Shown piece after piece: positions 2,335 to 14,000 of a stretch of DNA of 64,000 nucleotides. Under the pieces are notes generated by a model. The model was not told the origin of the DNA, searched no databases, and saw nothing but the letters and a program-made list of their open reading frames with translations. Source of the DNA: Escherichia coli (GTDB taxonomy: Bacteria > Pseudomonadota > Gammaproteobacteria > Enterobacterales > Enterobacteriaceae); NCBI RefSeq assembly GCF_002854065.1, contig NZ_CP024151.1; one strand, written 5' to 3'. The translations under genes and the position numbers were made by a program. Every line of letters begins with the position of its first letter. Position 1 is the first letter of the stretch.

Positions 2335-2700
2335 ATGATTGATGTCTTAGGACCGGAGAAACGCAGACGGCGTACTACACAGGAAAAGATCGCTATTGTT
2401 CAGCAGAGTTTTGAACCGGGAATGACGGTCTCCCTTGTAGCCCGGCAACACGGTGTGGCAGCCAGCCAGCTATTTCTCTGGCGCAAGCAATACCAGGAGG
2501 GAAGTCTTACTGCTGTGGCCGCAGGAGAACAGGTCGTTCCTGCCTCTGAACTTGCTGCTGCCATGAAGCAGATTAAAGAACTCCAGCGCCTGCTCGGCAA
2601 AAAAACGATGGAAAATGAACTCCTTAAAGAAGCCGTTGAATATGGGCGTGCAAAAAAGTGGATAGCGCACGCGCCCTTATTGCCCGGGGATGGGGAGTAA
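2335..2700 (+). CDS. insC: IS2 transposase OrfA (InsC)
   Basis: Translation [56 protein letters not shown]... matches InsC of IS2; HTH N-terminal domain. Confidence 0.85.
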
Positions 2701-3563
2701 GCTTAGTCAGCCGTTGTCTCCGGGTGTCGCGTGCGCAGTTGCACGTCATTCTCAGACGAACCGATGACTGGAAAGATGGTCGCCGCAGCCGTCACTCAGA
2801 TGATATGGATGTACTTCTCCGTATACACCATGTTATCGGAGAGCTGCCCACGTATGGTTATCGTCGGGTATGGGCGCTGCTTCGCAGACAGGCCGAACTT
2901 GATGGTATGCCTGCGATCAATGCCAAACGTGTTTACCGGATCATGTGCCAGAATGCGCTGTTGCTTGAGCGAAAAACCGCTGTACCGCCATCGAAGCGGG
3001 CACATACTGGCAAAGTGGCCGTGAAAGAAAGCAATCAACGATGGTGCTCTGACGGGTTCGAGTTCCGCTGTGATAACGGAGAAAAACTGCGAGTCACGTT
3101 CGCGCTGGACTGCTGTGACCGTGAGGCACTGTACTGGGCGGTCACTACGGGCGGCTTCGACAGTGAAACAGTACAGGACGTCATGCTGGGAGCGGTTGAA
3201 CGCCGCTTCGGCAACGAGCTTCCGGCGTCTCCAGTAGAGTGGCTGACGGATAATGGTTCATGCTACCGGGCTAATGAAACACGGCAGTTTGCCCGGATGT
3301 TGGGGCTTGAACCGAAGAACACGGCGGTGCGGAGTCCGGAGAGTAACGGCATAGCAGAGAGCTTCGTGAAAACGATAAAGCGTGACTACATCAGTGTCAT
3401 GCCTAAACCAGACGGGTTAACGGCAGCAAAGAACCTTGCAGAGGCGTTCGAGCATTATAACGAATGGCATCCGCATAGTGCACTGGGTTATCGCTCGCCA
3501 CGGGAATATCTACGGCAGCAGGCCAGTAATGGGTTAAGTGATAACAGGTGTCTGGAAATATAG
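2658..3563 (+). CDS. insD: IS2 transposase OrfB (InsD, DDE domain; expressed by -1 frameshift fusion with OrfA)
   Basis: 301-aa ORF overlapping the insC 3' end in the -1 frame; DDE integrase-like sequence (..WCSDGFEF.., ..[11 protein letters not shown].., ..[12 protein letters not shown]..). Confidence 0.85.
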
Positions 3564-3974
3564 GGGCAAATCCAGTATCCGGATGTGCTGCCAGCCTTCT
3601 CAGTTAACCGATGTTTTCCGGGCTTTTTGCCATACTGAGGACTGATAACGTATTCCTGGTCGTAAAACCCGTCAATATGCGCCGGGGCATCGACAAAACT
3701 GACACAGTACGTCCGGAAAGAACTTAACGCTGCATGGCACGACAATGCTGCCTTTGTCTTTACCAACAAGGCTCGTTCCCGCATAAAAGTTCTACGCCGG
3801 GATAAACATGGCGTATGGCTGCGTCAGGCCTTCACTACTTCACACCGGAAGTCTTCCAGCCTGACACGAATATACCGTCCGGGCTCTTTCGCAGGTGCAA
3901 ACAGTTTTTCACATTCGGCGAATGTCATTTCTGAATCCTGGTAACGCAACCACTGAACCGGCATATTACCGGGT

Positions 3975-4580
3975 TTGATTATTGTCGCAGTTATTTTATA
4001 TCGTTTCCCCATATCGCCTCTCATCCTGACAACAAAATTACCGGCTGAGCCAGGGGGCCCTCACCCCCCTATAAGGGGTCCGCTTGGAAACATATCGAAG
4101 AAAACGGCCGGCGGGAGGAATACGGCGCGCTACCTGGGTCGTTATCTGAAGAAGCCGCCGATAGCAGCCTCCCGGCTGGCACATTACAACGGAGGGGCGA
4201 GCCTGAGCCTCCGTTACCTGGACCACAAAATGGGAGAAACGGCGACGGAAACGCTGACACAGCGAGAGCTGGTCGCGAGGCTGAAACAGCACATCCCGGA
4301 GAAGTTTTTTAAGATGGTGAGGTACTTCGGGTTCCTTGCCAACCGGGTGTGTGGAGAGAAGCTGCCGCAGGTGTACCGTGCTCTGGGGATGGATAAACCG
4401 GAAGCAGTGGCGAAAGTGTGCTATGCACAAATGATGAAACAGTTCCTGAGTCGTGATCCGTTCGAATGCGTGCTGTGTGGCAACCGGATGGTATACCGCC
4501 GGTCCCTTGCGGGGCTGAATGTATCAGGGCTGAAGAAAAACGCGCGGGATATCAGTCTGCTGAGGTATATGCTGGCCTGA
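3975..4580 (+). pseudogene. C-terminal fragment of an IS91-family (HUH Y2) transposase
   Basis: ORF translation ...RYLGRYLKKPPIAASRLAHYNGG...MVRYFGFLANR...CVLCGNRM resembles the C-terminal zinc-binding region of IS91/IS801-type transposases; no N-terminal catalytic half upstream. Family assignment is from memory. Confidence 0.4.
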
Positions 4581-4846
4581 CGCAGGCTAAGTGTGCCCGG
4601 GAATTGGTGCAGGAATAAAAAACAGCCTGTTGCGGTATAAGAATCGACCATGCAGAGAGATAAAACACCGGAGTGGTGGGAAAAGCAGAAGAGCTCACGT
4701 GGCATAAGGCGTGGACAGCGGTATCGTCTGGTTTTTCAATTTCCTATACGTCAAGGATATTTAATGGAATATCAAACATTTGGCCTGATAACAATGCTCA
4801 AGGATTAATACCTGCAGGCTATGTTAAAGTTGTCCCCACACACAAT

Positions 4847-5122
4847 CTACCTGTTTTCTCGTGTGTGCCACAGGCGCAATACATAAATAGTCTGGCCAGT
4901 AAGTTCGTAACGGATTTCGTACTCGCCAGCATAAATCCGTCTGACCTCCCTGGGTTCAAACTGAAACAACTGTTCTCCCATACGTGGATGAGTTAACAGA
5001 ATGACCGGTGCCTGTGTCAGGGACTGCACCGTTCTGGCTGCAGCTGGTTTACTGGCCAGCGCCAGAAAATCATATAACCGCGCCAAATCAGAAAGCGCCT
5101 TACTGGTCCACTTCAGTTCCAT
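4847..5122 (-). CDS. RelE/ParE-superfamily type II toxin
   Basis: 91 aa; ...REVRRIYAGEYEIRYELTGQTIYVLRLWHTRE is the characteristic RelE/ParE C-terminal pattern; start overlaps the stop of the upstream antitoxin. Confidence 0.8.
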   Translation of the reverse strand: MELKWTSKALSDLARLYDFLALASKPAAARTVQSLTQAPVILLTHPRMGEQLFQFEPREVRRIYAGEYEIRYELTGQTIYVLRLWHTRENR

Positions 5123-5406
5123 CAGCGAGGCACCGGTAACGGATTGTCAGTACCGAGGCTGTCCGCCCAGGCCTGTACAGCCTGATGGTCGATAACCTGT
5201 CCGGATGTCACATCGTCCAGGGCTTCCAGCGTCAGGCGATTACGCTCCTCCTCCTGGGCAAGCCATGCAGAAAGCGCCTGTTTGATAATCCAGCCCCGGG
5301 ACCGTTCCAGTCTGGCGGCCATCTGGTCGACTTTATCAGCCATAGGTAATGGCACATGCGCAGTAATTACTTTTGTTACTTGTGCGGTATTGTTTTTCAT
5401 TTGCAT
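5122..5406 (-). CDS. Ribbon-helix-helix (CopG/ParD-like) antitoxin
   Basis: 94 aa, directly upstream of and overlapping the toxin; RHH-like N-terminal region (..RLERSRGWIIKQALSAWL..). Start codon uncertain (several in-frame Met). Confidence 0.7.
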   Translation of the reverse strand: MQMKNNTAQVTKVITAHVPLPMADKVDQMAARLERSRGWIIKQALSAWLAQEEERNRLTLEALDDVTSGQVIDHQAVQAWADSLGTDNPLPVPR

Positions 5407-5949
5407 ATCCGATTAGTTGTTAATCATATTTAATCATAGTGATTACTTTCAGACGGAACAAGACAAATAATGCGCGTCAGCGCATGTAAGGCGGCATACG
5501 GTGGTTACATGTAGCACAGGAGTAAAACCGCCGAAGCCCGGCGTAAGCCGGTACGGACTGATAGATTTCACCTTACCCATCCCCAGCCCTGCCAGACCAT
5601 ACCCGCTTTCAGCCATGAGAGAGCTTCTGTGCGCGGTCGGAGTGGTCCCGACGAGGGTTTACCCGAAGTCGGGGCGTATCTCCGCGTTAGCGGGCCGTCA
5701 GGGCCGCTTACGAGCGTGTACTGAGAACTTCCAGCCAGAAGACTGACAGCAATGATAATGTAGTTACAACATTCATAATTAAAAGCGACTCTGTTCCGGC
5801 CCGAAGGGCCGGGGCGGGGCCGCTTTTCAGTTATGAGGGAGGGGCTTTGTGGTTTCAGTTCTGCGCGGGACCGGGGTTTTCCTGGTGGTTGTATTTGAGT
5901 GTTGTAACTAAAATGGCTCCGGTCGGGGCCCGCCGCTTGCGGTGGGAGG

Positions 5950-6316
5950 TGCATATCTGTCTGTCCACAGGACAGGCAGTGAATAGGTTTTCTTTTTAAA
6001 TGAATGTAGTTAAGTAGTTTAAAGGAGATATAAACAGGTGTTTAAAAGATACATTGCACCCTGTAAGGCTGGCGGATGGCGCTTTATGACATGAACGGTT
6101 GTAACCTTATGGGGAAGTCCCTTGCAGTTAAATGTGGATAAGCAAAATTCCTCGTCTGTGAGGCGTGTTTTGTATCAAAAACAGGAGGGACCGGATGCAC
6201 CTGAAGGTGGATGATGAGGTTGTTTTTTGTATGCGGTGCTGTTTTTTTGTTCGCCGACAGGCTTCAGGCGTGCAGATGCCTCCGGTGCGGGCCGGATTAT
6301 TCAGAGGAGGTCACTT
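5950..6316. other. RepFIIA vegetative origin region (oriR) downstream of repA1
   Basis: Non-coding stretch immediately 3' of repA1 with AT-rich tract (about 5990-6050) and a consensus DnaA box TGTGGATAA at 6134..6142; position matches IncFII oriR. Boundaries approximate. Confidence 0.5.
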
Positions 6317-7174
6317 TCAGGGGGAAGCTGTGGCCAGCCGGCTGTAATTACGGTTACGTGACAGAATCATGCGCTCTTTCACACGACGCTCCACTTCGCG
6401 TTTTACCGCCTCACGATTGGCAGTGAAGCGCCCTTCCGAGATTTCACGCGTCAGCTGCCGTTTCACCAGGGTGACGATATCCTGACGTTCCCTGTTCGCA
6501 TCACGACGCGCACGGGCACGCTTTATTCCACGGGACTTAAGCTCTGTCTGGTAACTGCGGAAACGCTCACGCACAAAACGCCAGGCTTTCGCTATCAGTT
6601 CATCCATACCCAGGGTATCCAGTCCCTGCTTTTTGCGCTGTCTGTTTTCCCATTCAACACGACTGCGGCGCGCAGCAACTACTGCATCCTCAGACACATC
6701 AAGGGCGGCAAATAGCGCCGGTGTGAACGTGATATCGGTCGGAATGTAGCACCCGATAAGCGGATCATATTCCGTCTGGTAGGTAATCAGTCCCAGCTCT
6801 GCAAGGAACGTCAAGGCTCGGGTGGCCCGGGTGATGGAGAGTTTTCCGGCAGCAGACTCCGTCGCCAGTCCGCACTCAATGGCCAGCGTAGTGATGGAGC
6901 ACTGGACGCGGTTGGCCAGCGGGTCATAGTGAAAACACAGCCCCTGCAGCAGCGCATCAATAGCCCGGCGACGCAGTACCGGTGGCATGCGCCGACGCAG
7001 TCCCTTCGAACGGGCATGTGCCACATGAATGGCGAAATCAAAACGGGAGGTGAAGCCCACCGCCTTTTCCATCAGTTTTTCGCAGAACTTCAGCGTTCCG
7101 GCACCTTCACGGGGTGTGAACACCGGATTCGGGTTTTTAACCTGTGAATAGTATTTTTGAAGGAGATCAGCCAT
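6317..7174 (-). CDS. repA1: Replication initiator RepA1 (IncFII / RepFIIA)
   Basis: 285 aa from [77 protein letters not shown]..., near-identical in pattern to R100/R1 RepA1; SD GGAGGGGG before ATG at 7174. Confidence 0.92.
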
Positions 7175-7250
7175 GTCCCCCTCCAACACTATTCCCCCTC
7201 CTACGGGCGGCAACTAGCTCGTCTGGGCCGACACGTAAAGTTTCGAACAT
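7167..7250 (-). CDS. Candidate repA leader peptide (tap/repA6-like), translationally coupled to repA1
   Basis: In-frame Met 27 codons before a stop (GGACATGGCTGA) that overlaps the repA1 start; position matches the IncFII tap-repA coupling. Start codon uncertain; it is the 3' end of a longer 164-codon ORF. Confidence 0.3.
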
Positions 7251-7779
7251 ATCTGGTCTGAACCAGATGGTTCCTCCATCAAAAGCGATGAGATGAAGAT
7301 CATTATCAAGAGTTTTGAGGGCTCTCCAAACACGAGTGTATGAACCTCCACTACAAACTGAAAGCTCTTTAACAGATAAGTTAACTTTGTTCGTATCAGG
7401 GATGTAGTGTGCGCACATTACTTGTACGAGGGAAACATAAAAACTAACCATCGACGCGCTGATTTTATTTTTACGTTTGCCATGCGCTATTGCAAGAAAA
7501 CCTCTGATGAAGATCAGATGCTTGAAGGAGTCAAAATGAGCCCTTTTCTGGAGAAGGCAGCAAAACGGGTGAGGATACTTGCTGGAATCAATGTGAAGAT
7601 CTGATTCAATCCCACCCGCTATTACTGAATGTGTTTCATGATTAGCCACACCATCCTGCACTTACAATGCACAGAAGGAGTGAGCACAGAAAGAAGTCTT
7701 GAACTTTTCCGGGCATATAACTATACTCCCCGCATAGCTGAATTGTTGGCTATGCGGTTTTATGGGGCCCCGGTAATCT

Positions 7780-7890
7780 TTCTAGTCGCCAAACTTGAAG
7801 AAGATTATCGGGGTTTTCGCTTTTCTGGCTCCTGTAAATCCACATCAGAACCAGTTCCCTGCCACCTTACGGCGTGGCCAGCCACAAAAT
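7780..7890 (+). ncRNA. copA: Putative CopA/CopT antisense copy-number control region
   Basis: Located in the repA leader just downstream of copB, opposite strand to repA; contains CGCCAA and GC-rich hairpin-capable sequence I associate with R1/R100 CopA/CopT. Exact ends and strand not verifiable without alignment. Confidence 0.35.
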
Positions 7891-7947
7891 TCCTTAAACG
7901 ATCAGCAATCTACCACTCACTCCTGAGATAAGCAAGAATGTGAATAT

Positions 7948-8205
7948 TTACGAAGTCGCTCTGCGTTTCAACTCTGATTCAATCAGTTTTTCAAGCATCT
8001 GCGCCTGAGTAATACCTTCCTCATCCGCAAGTTCACTCAGCCTGTCTTTTAACCGGGCCTGAATAACCGCATGAAAAGCCTTATGAGTGTTGCTTCTGCG
8101 AGCCAGAGAAGCTCTTTGCCTCTCTCTGGCCGGAACAGGGTTACCTTTCCGGTATGTACGCTTGGTGCCTGATGAGGAAGTCACTGCATTTTCTGTCTGC
8201 GACAT
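7948..8205 (-). CDS. copB: Replication copy-number repressor CopB (RepA2)
   Basis: 85 aa, [23 protein letters not shown]...; small basic protein immediately upstream of the repA leader, as in IncFII replicons. Confidence 0.8.
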
Positions 8206-8467
8206 CTCGCCTCCTCAATTCTCAAACAGGGATCGTTTCGCAGAGAATACTACAGTTTTTTGAAATCAGCGACTTGAAAGTTGTGACGATGATCTGTGTT
8301 GGCGCACAAATCATGTCTGATTACGACCGTTTAATGTGATTTTGATAATGAAATGACTGAAAAGCTGGAAATGCCTTAGCCAGGGTGCCGGCCCCGGGCG
8401 GGACCGGCTGTTTCTGGTATATAGGATGTCTGCCCCTGAAATACCTCACACTTCCGGAAAGCGGGGA

Positions 8468-8671
8468 CTTCCGTGCTTCGTAGGCCAGAGTTACCTGCAC
8501 CACTGTATTTCCTCTGTGAATATTCAGCTCACATAACCGTTCCCTGAATATCAGTGAAAAACACAACACCATGGCGCACACGGCGAGCAACCCGATAAGG
8601 GCATATTTCGTCATAAACTTTGACCTCTCTGCAAAGAAGAGGCTACAATCAGTAGTGTTAAGGTACTTCAT
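8468..8671 (-). CDS. srnB: Hok/Gef-family type I toxin homologue (SrnB-like)
   Basis: Translation MKYLNTTDCSLFFAERSKFMTKYALIGLLAVCAMVLCFSLIFRERLCELNIHRGNTVVQVTLAYEARK matches the SrnB sequence as I remember it; single TM helix plus conserved C-E-L motif. In this sequence the frame reads on to 8321 with no stop after ...EARK. Confidence 0.7.
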
Positions 8672-9619
8672 GCAGACCTCACGAGTTAATGGATTAACGA
8701 GTGGGGTCTTCGCATTTCTGGTACCTGCGTCTTGCCTGAACCAGAAAGGCTCAGACACCCGCCGCGATAATACCACATTCCCTGTTGCTGGCTATTACCC
8801 CCATTTGCCTGTTTTTGTTACAAAAACGCCGGGAGCGGGGGAAAACTTACTTTTTCCCGTTTCCGGGGGGGACAACTGAGCATTGCGAACGCGTCAGCTA
8901 CGATGTTCCGGTGATTGCTGATCAGCCCCTGTTGTATTCATAAACTAATTAACATTCATTCCGTCTGGTGCATAAATCTGCCCGTGAACATCTGCAGACA
9001 ATACCGACCATAAAAAAATAAATAATCCCAGTAGAATATATTTCCTCATATTATTATCCATAACAAATAAATGGCACCTGTACACCTGTATTTCAGGCAA
9101 TCCTGAATATTGCAGCGCACATTGAATAAGACGTTATTTCGTGACATTAATCACAAAATATAAAATCGCGACTTAATACGGAAAAAACTCTGTGCTACTC
9201 AGAACTGACTGGTCATACTGCCCGACCGGATATTAAAAAAGCAAATCTCATAAACTCCTTTCAGCCTTCTGACTCCTGGAGTAATGAAGGCTGCTTTTTC
9301 GTTACACCCTTCCCCGGCAGCGCCGGTAGCAGTGTTCAGCCCTTTTTCGGGCAAACTGCTGCCAGTCTGTCCGGGGCGCAACACAGGCAGCCCGTCGCCA
9401 TCCTTCTGCCGCTTCCATCCAGCGTCCACTGACCTCCAGAATAACGGCCCGGCTTCCGGCACGCTGCCAGCGCCAGACCTGACCGTTCCGTGAACTGTTT
9501 CTGAATCCATTCATCTTTATCACTCCTCTTTAACCCGTCAGTATTATGGTGTTAAATAATCTACTGAATTGGCTTCCTTTCGGGTACGGAAGTTTATTTC
9601 CTTTTAAGCCTTATTTCCC

Positions 9620-11028: not shown

Positions 11029-14000
11029 TCAGTCTCCGCCCAGGGTTTTCTCTTTCTGCAGGGCACGAACCATATCCCGCTCCATCTGCTGCAGTCGCTC
11101 CTGCAGCAGATTTTCCCGGGCAACATCCCGGACCGCTTCCCGCACCCGTTGTGATTCACGCAGCACACTCTCCGGCAGCGCGGCTTCCCGTTCAGATATG
11201 GCAGACCGGTCACGCTCCTGCCCGGCAATCTCCCTGACAGCCTGCTCTGTTTTGCCATCCGGCAGGTCAGGTTTGTTCTCTGCCATTTTACGGACAATTT
11301 CATCCGCACGGCGTTCCGTTTCACGGCGGATGGCCTCTTCAGCTTGCCGCTGTGCCAGTACCTCTGCCGTGACCGGTTCGCCATTTCCGGCTCCCGGCTG
11401 AACGCTGTTGTCCGGGATATCCCCCCACACGCGACCACCGGTGATGGTACCGGGATTCCACGGACGACCTTCACCGGCGATTCTTACCACCACACCGCTG
11501 TCAGGATTATCACGGGCAATCCGGACACCATCCTGCATATTATCAGCCAGCAGGCTCTCTCCGTTACGGCTGCCCTGCAGGGCCACGAACTGCGCATCCC
11601 CGCTGCCTTTCACCCGGCCTTCACCACTGAAGCCCCGCAGCCCGTTTCCGTCATCCGTGGTCAGCGGATTCAGCCAGATACCGGCGGACTTGCCGTTACG
11701 GTCAAAAGCCGGCAGTGCCACATACGGCTGCGGATATTTGCGCCCGGGTGCAATAAACCGTGCAGGATTGTCTCCCCCGGCAAGTCCCGCCTGACGGAGA
11801 ACGGCACGGCCGGCCGCCACGTCCCGCAGCTCCCGCGCCGTACTGAACAGCCGCTCTGCATTCATGACCTCCCGGTCCGATTTCGGCTCAAGCACATCGT
11901 GGGCAGTTCCTTTCTGTACGGCATTGTTAATGGCATCCGTCCAGCCCTGACGGTTATCGGTATACACCTGCACATGCTGCTTCATACGCGACAGGGCCAC
12001 GTAGGCTGACTCAAAGCCGGCCATCTGTTTCCGGCTGCCTTCCGTACCTTCAAGCGCGATGGCAAAGGTTTCACTTGCCCCCTGCGCACCGTGGGCGGTG
12101 ATGGCATAGGCCAGGTCAATATGTTGCTCTGCCCGCTCCTGACCGGGGCGAATCACCCGGGTCTGCTGTCCGTCCGACAGCGTGACACTGTCACCGGAAA
12201 CCGCTGTCACCGTCCAGACGCTGTTGGCCACATAACCGCGCTCCCGGTCACTCTTCGTGAAGCGCATCCGGTCACCGGTTCCCACCCGGATGGTGTCCGG
12301 GGTGTACAGTGTGACGCCTTCAGCCACCGCCTCCCGGGGCGAAATCAGCCGCGTGTTACCTTCAGCATCCTGCAGGGTTATCAGCCCGTCATCCCTGCTG
12401 ATACCGGCAATCCGGTGATACACATTATCCACCAGGGCAAGTGCGTCCCGATGTGTCTCCCAGGTGGAGAGACGACGCAGCTCCCCGTCGCGTATATTCG
12501 CTGTGTTCAGGACAGGCACCATGACCTGCTCTTTTCCCAGCTCACCGGCCTTTTCCCGTGCATCATGAATCATGCTGTTCAGCACGCGCCGGTCCTCATT
12601 CAGGTGCGTGACAATCAGCGTCTGCTCCCGTGCTTCCGGTGTTCTGCCGGTATAGTCGCGGACAATGGCTTCATACAGTGTCATGGGGACATCCGGGAAA
12701 GCCTCGCCTTTCAGCATCGCCTTCTGCTGCGCTTCTGCCAGTTTCGCTTCCTGGCTGTGACTGAACTCCATCACGGAGTGCTCCGGTGCCCATGCGCCCT
12801 CCAGACGTGGCACCTGAGACGGTTTCACACTCTCAAGCCCGGATAGTGCCCTTTCCACATCCCGGTTAATCAGGTTGTATACCGCCTCCCGCAGTTCCGG
12901 CGTCTGACGCACAATCTCCTTCATGATGGCCACATCGGCAGCACTGCGCGTCTGCTGGAGACGGAAAGGCTGACCGGGCGCGATGGCCTGCAGCTGGTCC
13001 GTGTCACCACTGGCCACGGCACGACCGCCACCGGCCGCAATCAGGGCGTATGCCCGTGCCATGTCGGTATTGCCCACCATTGAGCTCTCATCGAGCAGGA
13101 ACAGCGTGTTGCTGAAATCCGGCGTTTCTCCGCTGCGCTGCTGCAGCTGCGTGTCATGCAGAAAAGACGCCAATGTCTGCGCATCCACGCCGGCGCTGCG
13201 CATCTCCCCGACCGCACGGTGTGTGGGACCCAGCCCAACGACACGGGGACGCTCACTCTCCGGCAGCATGTTCACGGCTGACATCACCGCCCGGAACTGT
13301 GTGGTCTTACCCACACCGGCATAGCCCTGCACCACCGTGAAGCGGTCGGACGTTTCCAGTATCATGCGGGTGGCGGCGCGCTGTCCTGATGTCAGTTTCT
13401 CCATGAGTTCGCCAGGTACTCTCTCCATCAGCGGCGTGACCGCCTCCTTACCTTCGAGAATATGGCGAAGAATGCTCTTTTCTGCCTCATACGACGCACG
13501 GGAAACCAGCAGGCCTGTGCCATAGTCTTTTGCCACATCCACATACAGTAAATCACCCCGTTTTATCTGCGCATCGATTTCCCCTCCCAGTTCAGTAAAA
13601 CTGGTTCCTTCTGCAGCAAACGACTTCGCCTCTGTCAGCAGGTCCACCATGCTGAAGGCCAGGTTTTTACTTTCCAGCACAGGAAGGGCCAGATGAATGG
13701 CCTGCTGTGCCGGCGTGTGAAGCCCGGCTTTCTGCAGACTGATAGCGGTTTCCAGCAATGTCTCACCGGCACGCGCCTTTATCTGCTCAGAAACCACCGT
13801 AAAGGAGGGATGGCGGGCAAGTTTTTCCGCAGTACGGGTTTCATCCAGTGAGGAATACAGCCGGACATCACGACCGCTGCGGGCCAGACCGTTCAGGGTG
13901 GCGTTGTCCATTGCCATCTGTGTGACGGAGGCAAAAACCTTCGCACTGTCGCTGACGGAATGCCCGGGCGTTTCCACCCAGCCGCTCTCCAGCTTCAGTG

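Follow-up and report, generated by a model that had tools for sequence, protein, structure and literature searches.

Two small genes, both read from the minus strand, occupy the first part of the interval 4847..6316 of the window, the 64,000-nucleotide stretch of plasmid DNA analyzed here. In the list of open reading frames, a toxin gene (91 aa) was found at 4847..5122(-) and an antitoxin gene (94 aa) at 5122..5406(-), exactly where an earlier reading made from the sequence alone (hereafter, the sequence-only reading) had placed them. The antitoxin gene comes first and the two genes share one base, 5122, the stop codon of the antitoxin and the start codon of the toxin lying within GCTGATGG; two small co-directional genes, antitoxin first, with overlapping stop and start, form the layout of type II toxin-antitoxin systems. 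An alternative ATG at 5400 would give an antitoxin of 92 aa, a length also observed in some members of the antitoxin cluster. A domain search of both proteins assigned the toxin to the Pfam family ParE_toxin (E=1.3e-16) and the antitoxin, over residues 14-51, to the ribbon-helix-helix (RHH, CopG-type) domain RHH_1 (E=3.7e-11), that is, a toxin fold family and a DNA-binding antitoxin domain. Together with the matches in the PDB, these assignments bear out the earlier proposal of an RHH antitoxin and a RelE/ParE toxin of type II. As judged from its sequence, the pair is a type II module formed by a ParE-type toxin and an RHH antitoxin and is common on plasmids; the locus was intact in 1,555 of the 72,556 public plasmids. 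The searchable literature yielded no experimental work on the pair itself.

The RefSeq name of the toxin, RelE/ParE family toxin, and the Pfam family (PF05016) span two classes of toxin, and RelE and ParE toxins have a common fold (PMC8706911). A RelE-type, ribosome-dependent mRNA endonuclease was therefore weighed against a ParE-type gyrase poison, and it appears unlikely. The best sequence matches of the toxin in the PDB (7etr_C, 6xrw_A, 8c24_A, and 5ceg_B) were all ParE toxins, with no RelE, HigB or YoeB among the matches, which were weak (every E-value was at least 0.014). The C-terminal LWHTR of the toxin lines up with VLHQR of ParE1, and its C-terminal His with the essential His91 of ParE_SO. 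The partner points in the same direction, being an RHH antitoxin of the ParD/CopA type whose best PDB match was CopA_SO (7etr_A, E=1.2e-4, residues 15-89); 7ETR, one solved complex, was the best PDB match for toxin and antitoxin alike. The toxin is thus placed in the ParE subfamily by its ParE relatives, an LHxR-like C-terminus and an RHH partner, at E-values that are weak, and its toxicity and target are predicted on this basis.

The nearest studied relative is ParE_SO/CopA_SO, from the prophage CP4So of Shewanella oneidensis, whose complex 7ETR has been described (PMC8706911). The two systems are only remotely related (E=0.014 for the toxin and 1.2e-4 for the antitoxin), and the layout is the same: an RHH antitoxin gene first, with a toxin-binding tail, and then the gene of a small ParE toxin that has a C-terminal His. 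Repeated operator half-sites are likewise found in the promoter of both systems, whereas the operator motif differs (TAATCA/TGATTA here, GTANTAC(N)3GTANTAC in ParE_SO/CopA_SO), as does the host element (a plasmid in this case, a prophage in Shewanella).

YacAB, the ParDE-I of pKF3-70, is a documented plasmid-stability and stress-tolerance module (Kamruzzaman and Iredell, 2019) that lies in the same place, directly after the repA4 region. Gene order is shared, sizes are similar and the toxin also belongs to the ParE superfamily; however, the toxins are 26% identical and the antitoxins have no detectable similarity. The comparison was with the pJIE512b/pKF3-70 proteins, for which that paper set a threshold of at least 80% nucleotide identity, and the published ParDE-I primers gave no match in the window. 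Identity with YacAB/ParDE-I, which is annotated as 'YacB' in IncF and IncI plasmids, was excluded by these identity and primer tests. PemIK/Kis-Kid of R100/R1, another type II addiction module, likewise lies downstream of this replicon, but its toxin is a MazF/PemK endoribonuclease and the family is unrelated. Pfam detected only ParE_toxin and RHH_1 here and the pemIK DNA of R100 did not align with the window, which sets this pair apart from that family. In R100, one gene, tir (for a CPBP-family protease), separates pemIK from the replicon, and remains of yacA (promoter and start) precede tir/pemIK. The present pair occupies the place that these elements have in R100, which agrees with the position given for pemIK/kis-kid in the sequence-only reading.

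A promoter and a probable operator of the toxin-antitoxin operon were located at 5420..5452(-) by means of a promoter scan, a direct repeat and the coordinates. The -35 element is CTGAAA (5452..5447) and the -10 element TATGAT (5428..5423), and TAATCA half-sites were found at 5421..5426 and 5431..5436 with an inverted TGATTA copy at 5440..5445. This segment was kept in other plasmids with the same cassette and was missing from plasmids with other cassettes. The cassette, approximately 4734..5472, would be a self-contained type II 'addiction' unit with its own promoter. This single promoter, whose -10 region overlaps the TAATCA/TGATTA half-sites, would drive both genes, the toxin gene lying 3' of the RHH antitoxin gene and being translationally coupled to it. 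On the model of ParE_SO/CopA_SO and other ParDE systems, a dimer of the antitoxin may bind the half-sites and repress its own promoter, and its C-terminal tail would wrap the toxin and neutralize it. After loss of the plasmid, the labile antitoxin would decay and the toxin, probably a gyrase poison, would halt growth. Exceptions to gyrase inhibition occur among ParE toxins; the target of ParE_SO itself is unproven and ParE2 of E. coli does not inhibit gyrase (PMC8706911).

BLAST breakpoints and alignment place the end of the homology to R100 and to pKF3-70 at 5473. The last conserved element of the replicon is the hairpin ATGCGC-GTCA-GCGCAT at 5470..5485(+), for which at least seven stem sequences, with complementarity kept, were found across Enterobacterales. 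What follows this junction varies among plasmids: six different cassettes were found, representing five toxin-antitoxin kinds; in plasmids sharing 5473..6316 these included pemIK, yacAB, Phd-RelE, HigB-like, and hok. Because six different cassettes follow the same junction in different plasmids, the modular exchange of addiction cassettes put forward in the sequence-only reading is supported by these sequence comparisons and is real.

The same reading had assigned 5410..5950 to the toxin-antitoxin pair as a spacer. Only 5407..5472, with the promoter and operator, belongs to the cassette, and the DNA from 5473 onward is replicon DNA, shared by plasmids without this toxin-antitoxin pair. The suggestion that 5410..5950 is a leader, terminator or small-RNA region of the cassette draws on its position next to the antitoxin gene and on its strong hairpins, one of them terminator-like. 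It is extremely improbable, since the homology with plasmids carrying other cassettes spans 5473..6316 and breaks at 5473, the region has no Rfam match, and the promoter scan found none for a transcript of either strand within 5473..5750. An Rfam scan of 4000..9000 at E<=1 returned only CopA, sok, and weak repZ/repBA pseudoknot matches, none of them in 5400..5950. The description of the spacer as GC-rich holds only mildly (54.3% GC in 5410..5950 vs. 52.4% in the window); GC content rises locally to 62-64%, and 5350..5500 is AT-rich.

The DNA at 5473..6316 is the conserved IncFII oriR/'repA4' region. From 5473 to 6400, the window was 94.6% identical to R100; the identity to pKF3-70, which likewise breaks off at 5473, was 94.1%. 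The replicon module was found in 77% of complete E. coli genomes (4,190/5,426). The order of elements is that of R100/R1 (repA, DnaA box/oriR, two inverted Ter sites, and then conserved hairpins), and the window carries an allele of the R1/R100 (NR1) repA4/ter region (terRL, terRR, 'G site', repA4 ORF) in which nothing essential differs. The differences observed were an extra ORF of 160-164 aa between tap and repA, relative to R1/R100, and the DNA past 5473, relative to R100. The origin, oriR, was placed approximately at 5955..6141(-); its DnaA box (TTATCCACA) spans 6141..6133, and AT-rich DNA lies around 5990..6060. The distal boundary of oriR was set from the 188-bp length of the R1 oriR, for which the position of the DnaA box has also been published (PMC5883639). 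The place given to the toxin-antitoxin pair in the sequence-only reading, 'directly beyond oriR', is not exact, since oriR and the antitoxin gene are separated by about 550 bp of conserved replicon DNA. In the TraDIS analysis of pEC958, the repA4 region was required for maintenance (PMC4398462). The main known content from 5473 onward is two Ter sites and the region of the leading-strand start.

The consensus of Ter sites is AGNATGTTGTAACTAA, including G6 and the GTTGTAACTA core, and the orientation in which they stop forks is established for Tus-Ter. Exact GTTGTAACTA cores occur only twice in the 64-kb window, 120 nt apart, inverted and in the orientation of a trap, and both sites match the consensus at 14 of 16 positions, with the exact core and a G at position 6. 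Ter-B (TGAATGTTGTAACTAC), recognized by its exact core at 5760..5775(-), is predicted to bind Tus and to stop forks coming from the repA/oriR side. Ter-A (TGAGTGTTGTAACTAA), recognized by its core match and the inverted repeat at 5896..5911(+), is predicted to stop forks heading to oriR and repA. The core of Ter-B was exact in 9 of the 11 aligned replicons (p2EC1-2 has one substitution and LT883139 could not be aligned there), and a site on the same strand, within 260 nt, was found in 26 of the 48 loci examined; Ter-A was found in some relatives only. This arrangement corresponds to a polar fork trap beside a unidirectional origin, as in R1, where the leading-strand start is separated from the minimal oriR by two ter sites with stated roles (PMC10331603). 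From the 94.6% identity to R100 and the published work on R1, we infer that Tus would bind Ter-A and Ter-B and arrest forks there.

Between the two Ter sites, an intrinsic-terminator-like hairpin was detected by folding and covariation at 5781..5827(+). The palindrome with a T-run noticed near 5800 in the sequence-only reading is CCGGCCCGAAGGGCCGG, at 5796..5812, and it lies within an inverted repeat with 22-nt arms (5781..5802 / 5806..5827) that ends in TTTT (5824..5827). The hairpin is bidirectional in form and much stronger on the plus strand, with RNA folds of -43.3 kcal/mol (z=-7.6) on the plus strand and -31.3 kcal/mol (z=-4.9) on the minus strand; the plus strand was the stronger in all 22 hairpin variants (22/22). 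Compensatory changes were observed in 8 of 25 predicted pairs, and many pairs are U.G. In form this is a Rho-independent terminator, with a stable GC-rich hairpin, a U-run and compensatory change, and it may act as one, chiefly blocking transcription into oriR from the variable side of the plasmid. Of the 'terminators or small RNA' proposed earlier for this DNA, the terminator-like hairpin was found, and neither an Rfam family nor a promoter speaks for the small RNA.

A near-invariant structured element of about 95 nt was identified by conservation and covariation at 5629..5723(+), between Ter-B and the proposed start. It was invariant even where its flanks could not be aligned and was present in 36 contigs from many genera of Enterobacterales. 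The proposed partners were paired in 95.9% of cells, compared with 40-57% for slid partners, and six pairs showed compensatory changes. As DNA, the plus strand folds at -28.3 kcal/mol (z=-3.6) and the minus strand at -19.9 kcal/mol (z=-1.6). Its being an undescribed functional element of IncFII-type replicons is a conjecture to which we give a low probability. Its role could possibly be that of a small RNA ending at the plus-strand terminator, or that of a site on single-stranded DNA at which helicase or primase would be loaded past the Tus block.

The first of these roles implies that the element and the downstream plus-strand terminator form one conserved non-coding RNA gene directed towards oriR, at about 5620..5830. 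Both structures favor the plus strand via G.U pairs, both covary and their spacing to the Ter core is fixed at 80-86 nt, and the U-run of the terminator is conserved. Such a gene nevertheless seems very doubtful: neither the promoter scan nor inspection of the alignment revealed a sigma-70-like promoter on the plus strand upstream of the element, the putative RNA matches no Rfam family, and a Ter site would fall inside the transcript. The same strand bias would be expected if the plus strand folded as single-stranded DNA, because it is the template of the leading strand.

The proposed start of the leading strand (G site) was assigned, on the basis of conservation, to a series of hairpins followed by CTG 5589..5591, at 5486..5595(+). 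The series includes the hairpin CCGGC-GTAA-GCCGG at 5538..5551. The start has reportedly been placed close to the 3' end of repA4, at a distance of 380-400 bp on the downstream side of oriR (Masai and Arai, 1989; Jiang and colleagues, 1993). A literature search for the coordinates of the R1 G site gave nothing usable, and a position beyond both Ter sites fits the R1 layout (PMC10331603). The CTG was kept in 44 of 45 relatives and its distance to the structured element was fixed in about 40 of the 45. Conservation of the hairpins in 5466..5596 was scored by a hairpin search in each sequence, and hairpin III was conserved as well as this CTG. The DNA fold of the hairpin region upstream of the CTG was no better than that of shuffled sequences (z=-1.7).

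In the phage G4 complementary-strand origin, a primase-only signal, a CTG likewise comes after a series of hairpins in the template strand; the candidate counterparts here lie at 5589..5591 (CTG) and 5470..5578 (hairpins). The hairpin CGGCGTAAGCCG matches stem-loop I of G4, CGGCGAAAGCCG, at 11 of 12 bases. Local alignment of 5470..5725 with the G4 oric, on either strand, gave no significant similarity against shuffled sequences, and scores for the G4/St-1/alpha3 complementary-strand origins stayed within the shuffle distributions. Nothing in G4 corresponds to 5629..5723, the most conserved structure of this region, which also lies on the wrong side of CTG 5589..5591 for a G4-type signal. Two other candidates for the G site were rejected: 5629..5723 with CTG 5721..5723, whose CTG is unconserved and which has no similarity to the G4 oric, and CTG 5558..5560 after the G4-like hairpin, which gave the best raw alignment to G4 and is unconserved, the alignment being within chance. 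CTG 5589..5591 is the most likely candidate for the priming site.

The same DNA contains the historical 'repA4' ORF of 128 aa, at 5568..5954(-), which was judged non-coding. The ORF is intact here and in R100, and RepA4 is annotated in some RefSeq records and papers, so a functional RepA4 protein had to be considered. Such a protein is scarcely credible in view of the frame, which was interrupted in 9 of 10 relatives, of the substitutions, distributed about 1:1:1 over the codon positions, and of the lack of any match to Pfam or NCBIfam. In pEntH10407, RepA4 appears as two truncated ORFs, and the peaks of conservation follow the hairpins and Ter sites, not the reading frame. The sequence-only reading, which saw no convincing ORF here, was right in substance, the 128-aa ORF not being conserved as coding.

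Gene content, homology, breakpoints, conservation, covariation, and site orientation are direct observations at this locus, and we consider it highly probable that the interval joins two modules, the toxin-antitoxin cassette and the distal half of the IncFII basic replicon, including the mechanism proposed for them. In the replicon, RepA and DnaA would open oriR, and leading-strand synthesis would start beyond the Ter sites, on the plus-strand template, proceeding from CTG 5589..5591 away from oriR. After one round, the fork would return via repA and oriR, pass Ter-A and be stopped by Tus at Ter-B, which would prevent over-replication, while Ter-A would stop any fork running back towards oriR. 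The model does not account for one step: on its way from oriR to the proposed start, a helicase would first run into Ter-B, which faces it in the blocking orientation.

Apart from the element of about 95 nt, these findings are known biology, and the toxin-antitoxin pair is real but ordinary. They avert a mis-annotation: the structured 'spacer' is cis-acting replication DNA, neither regulatory DNA of the toxin-antitoxin pair nor a RepA4 gene. The DNA past the last hairpin of the replicon has served repeatedly as a docking site, with at least six different cassettes representing five toxin-antitoxin kinds, and is useful for the typing of plasmids and for reasoning on their stability. One of the best-studied replicons also contains a terminator biased to the plus strand and a deeply conserved element of about 95 nt, and the accessible literature gives a function to neither. 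If this element were a single-stranded-DNA loading site, the start of replication beyond the origin-facing Ter site would be explained.

The toxin-antitoxin pair placed by the sequence-only reading directly beyond oriR was recovered at the same positions, with a toxin ORF of 91 aa (4847..5122, minus strand) and an antitoxin ORF of 94 aa (5122..5406, minus strand), the toxin start and the antitoxin stop having one base in common. Its typing was also correct, since Pfam assigned ParE_toxin (E=1.3e-16) to the first and RHH_1 (E=3.7e-11) to the second; beyond these, the NCBIfam scan gave just a weak BrnA-antitoxin match. The RefSeq names are 'RelE/ParE family toxin' and 'CopG/ribbon-helix-helix protein'. 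ParE_SO/CopA_SO from a Shewanella prophage (7ETR), the closest studied relative, was the top PDB sequence match of both proteins (toxin E=0.014, antitoxin E=1.2e-4), and the remaining PDB matches of the toxin were ParE proteins without exception. The C-terminal LWHTR of the toxin aligns with a ParE motif, and a toxin His aligns with His91 of ParE_SO, a residue essential for the toxicity of that protein. A promoter-like site was located by a promoter scan on the minus strand (-35 at 5452..5447; -10 at 5428..5423) and is overlapped by TAATCA/TGATTA half-sites. Judging from sequence, we read the cassette as an ordinary ParE/RHH addiction module, for which we infer toxicity, the toxin target and autorepression. 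Identity with the experimentally characterised YacAB/ParDE-I cassette (PMC6614396) was rejected, the toxins being 26% identical and the antitoxins unrelated. The published ParDE-I primers had no match in the window.

A complete IncFII replicon lies on the minus strand, comprising copB (8205..7948), the CopA RNA (7734..7822; Rfam, 93.6 bits), repA (7171..6317; Pfam IncFII_repA) and a DnaA box (6141..6133). The oriR of R1 is 188 bp long and starts at the DnaA box (PMC5883639), which puts the far end of oriR in the window near 5955. Window 6400..5473 was aligned with the IncFII plasmid R100 (94.6% identity) and with pKF3-70 (94.1%), and both alignments stop at 5473. The stretch 5410..5950, previously taken for a spacer next to the pair, is thus replicon DNA down to 5473, and the cassette's share is 5407..5472 only. 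Its description as GC-rich held mildly: the stretch has 54.3% GC and the whole window 52.4%, and GC content peaks locally at 62-64%. Segment 5473..5990 was present in 4,190 of 5,426 complete E. coli genomes and annotated 'RepA4' in some. The historical 128-aa repA4 ORF (5568..5954, minus strand) has its frame interrupted in nine of ten relatives and substitutions even across codon positions, and it is most probably no gene.

Upstream in the same replicon, an ORF of 160-164 aa (7167..7661, minus strand) is located between tap (leader peptide) and repA, overlapping both, whereas R100 has no insert there. This ORF had no Pfam match, is a distant paralogue of the RepA central part (34% identity, 98 aa, E=3e-9), and is annotated as hypothetical in pPM4-5-103k, an identical plasmid. 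A sok antitoxin RNA was also detected (8602..8760, minus strand; Rfam, 94.5 bits, E=4e-21), so that a hok/sok type I locus, the plasmid's second addiction system, lies just upstream of the replicon.

The cassette found directly after the hairpin at 5470..5485 differed among plasmids. In R100 it is a yacA remnant followed by tir and pemIK; in pKF3-70 and p67_100, yacAB; in the window, OZ040766 and p20AR0300C, the RHH/ParE pair; in LT883139, a RelE/ParE toxin with an HTH (helix-turn-helix) antitoxin; in p1_115106 and pEntH10407, Phd/YefM-RelE (stbDE); and in pE32511-2 and pNMBU, hok. Such differing cassettes at one junction support the modular exchange proposed earlier. The exchange point falls where the last conserved cis element stops, and the left boundary of the cassette is at about 4734..4752, where the match of other plasmids ends. 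R100 (~8515..8600, compared with pKF3-70 12570..12640) retains the yacAB promoter region and, just past the replicon junction, a degenerate yacA start (ATAGGACAAGTTAA versus ATGGCACAGGTTAA in pKF3-70), suggesting that an earlier yacAB cassette was replaced by tir-pemIK. The DNA left of the cassette (2658..4580) is a mosaic of an IS3-family (IS2-like) transposase ORF (2658..3563), a DUF1187 gene (3824..4024, minus strand) and a truncated IS91-family transposase remnant (3975..4580).

The 560-bp locus was covered at 80% or more in 1,555 of 72,556 public plasmids, mostly with 95-99% identity, and plasmids with truncated remnants were roughly equal in number to those with an intact locus. Many of the former come from Klebsiella. 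The sampled remnants (hits H52-H63) kept nothing of the locus but its first 240 nt (window 4847..5086), from the 3' portion of the toxin gene; being unannotated and without the antitoxin gene, they look like decayed copies of the cassette. Some plasmids (e.g., NZ_CP075633.1; hits H17-H21) matched the query in two pieces; they have roughly 800 additional bases with genes for another RelE/ParE toxin and for an HTH regulator, which makes two toxin-antitoxin cassettes in tandem beside the replicon. In the Shigella dysenteriae plasmid NZ_CP026787.1 (2906..3878), the cassette and the distal part of the replicon alone (window 4752..5726) adjoin the stb partition genes, without Ter sites or oriR; it resembles the remains of a replicon with the pair retained.

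The 64 kb contain exactly two copies of the Ter core GTTGTAACTA, Ter-B (5760..5775, minus strand) and Ter-A (5896..5911, plus strand), an inverted pair of candidate Tus-binding sites 120 nt apart. The exact Ter-B core was present in nine of the 11 aligned replicons, and Ter-A in some only. Tus-Ter blocks a fork that meets the G6 end first; by this rule Ter-B would block forks arriving from repA/oriR and Ter-A those returning to oriR, and the two sites form a predicted fork trap. The arrangement agrees with a review's description of R1, where the minimal oriR is separated from the leading-strand start by two ter sites, of which one imposes unidirectional replication and the other arrests the fork after a full round, thereby preventing over-replication (PMC10331603, PMC7174701).

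The palindrome pointed out earlier was confirmed between the two Ter sites, at 5796..5812, as part of a longer inverted repeat with arms at 5781..5802 and 5806..5827 that closes with a T-run. It is shaped like an intrinsic terminator, in keeping with the terminator thought possible in this stretch, termination itself being predicted from the fold. The RNA fold was stronger on the plus strand (-43.3 kcal/mol, z=-7.6) than on the minus strand (-31.3), as it was in 22/22 hairpin sequence variants from several genera. Compensatory changes were found in eight of 25 pairs, and U.G pairs were frequent. The hairpin would mainly stop transcription that runs into oriR from the plasmid's variable side, with weaker termination in the opposite direction.

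Downstream of Ter-B, a block of about 95 nt (5629..5723) was near-invariant in an 11-replicon alignment, even in places where its flanks could not be aligned. A pattern scan of species-representative genomes, in which the invariance of one helix was imposed by the search pattern itself, recovered the block from 36 contigs; Pantoea, Serratia, Erwinia, Pectobacterium, Yersinia and Klebsiella were among the genera represented. Its plus strand folds into a closed structure of several helices, with 95.9% paired cells against 40-57% with slid partners, compensatory changes in six pairs and a covariation score reached by none of 500 shuffles. Its DNA fold was also stronger on the plus strand (-28.3 kcal/mol, z=-3.6) than on the minus strand (-19.9, z=-1.6). 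The element was also present in assemblies labelled Streptomyces, Clostridiales, Lachnospiraceae, Sporosarcina, Collinsella, Ignatzschineria and Capnocytophaga. Most of these copies are near-identical to that of E. coli, and the assemblies are probably contaminated or mis-binned. Beyond the block lies a series of hairpins, the final one (5470..5485) occurring with at least seven distinct stem sequences in which complementarity is preserved.

The plus strand is the template of the leading strand heading away from oriR. Masai and Arai in 1989 and Jiang et al. in 1993 are said to have placed the leading-strand start about 380-400 bp past oriR, near the repA4 3' end. The best candidate for this start is the CTG at 5589..5591, which 44 of 45 relatives keep; its distance from the oriR end is about 365 bp, and it stands 20 nt ahead of the repA4 stop codon. 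Phage G4 oric had no significant similarity anywhere in the region, and the fold of the hairpin region was not better than shuffles. On the template strand the ~95-nt block is located 3' of this CTG, and therefore a G4-type signal does not explain it. It is a puzzle that a helicase from oriR would meet Ter-B, in blocking orientation, ahead of the proposed start region.

The finding is real; the cassette is widespread and already annotated, and the adjoining replicon elements have been on record from R1 and R100 for decades. Experiments might be worthwhile only on the ~95-nt element and on the strand-biased terminator.
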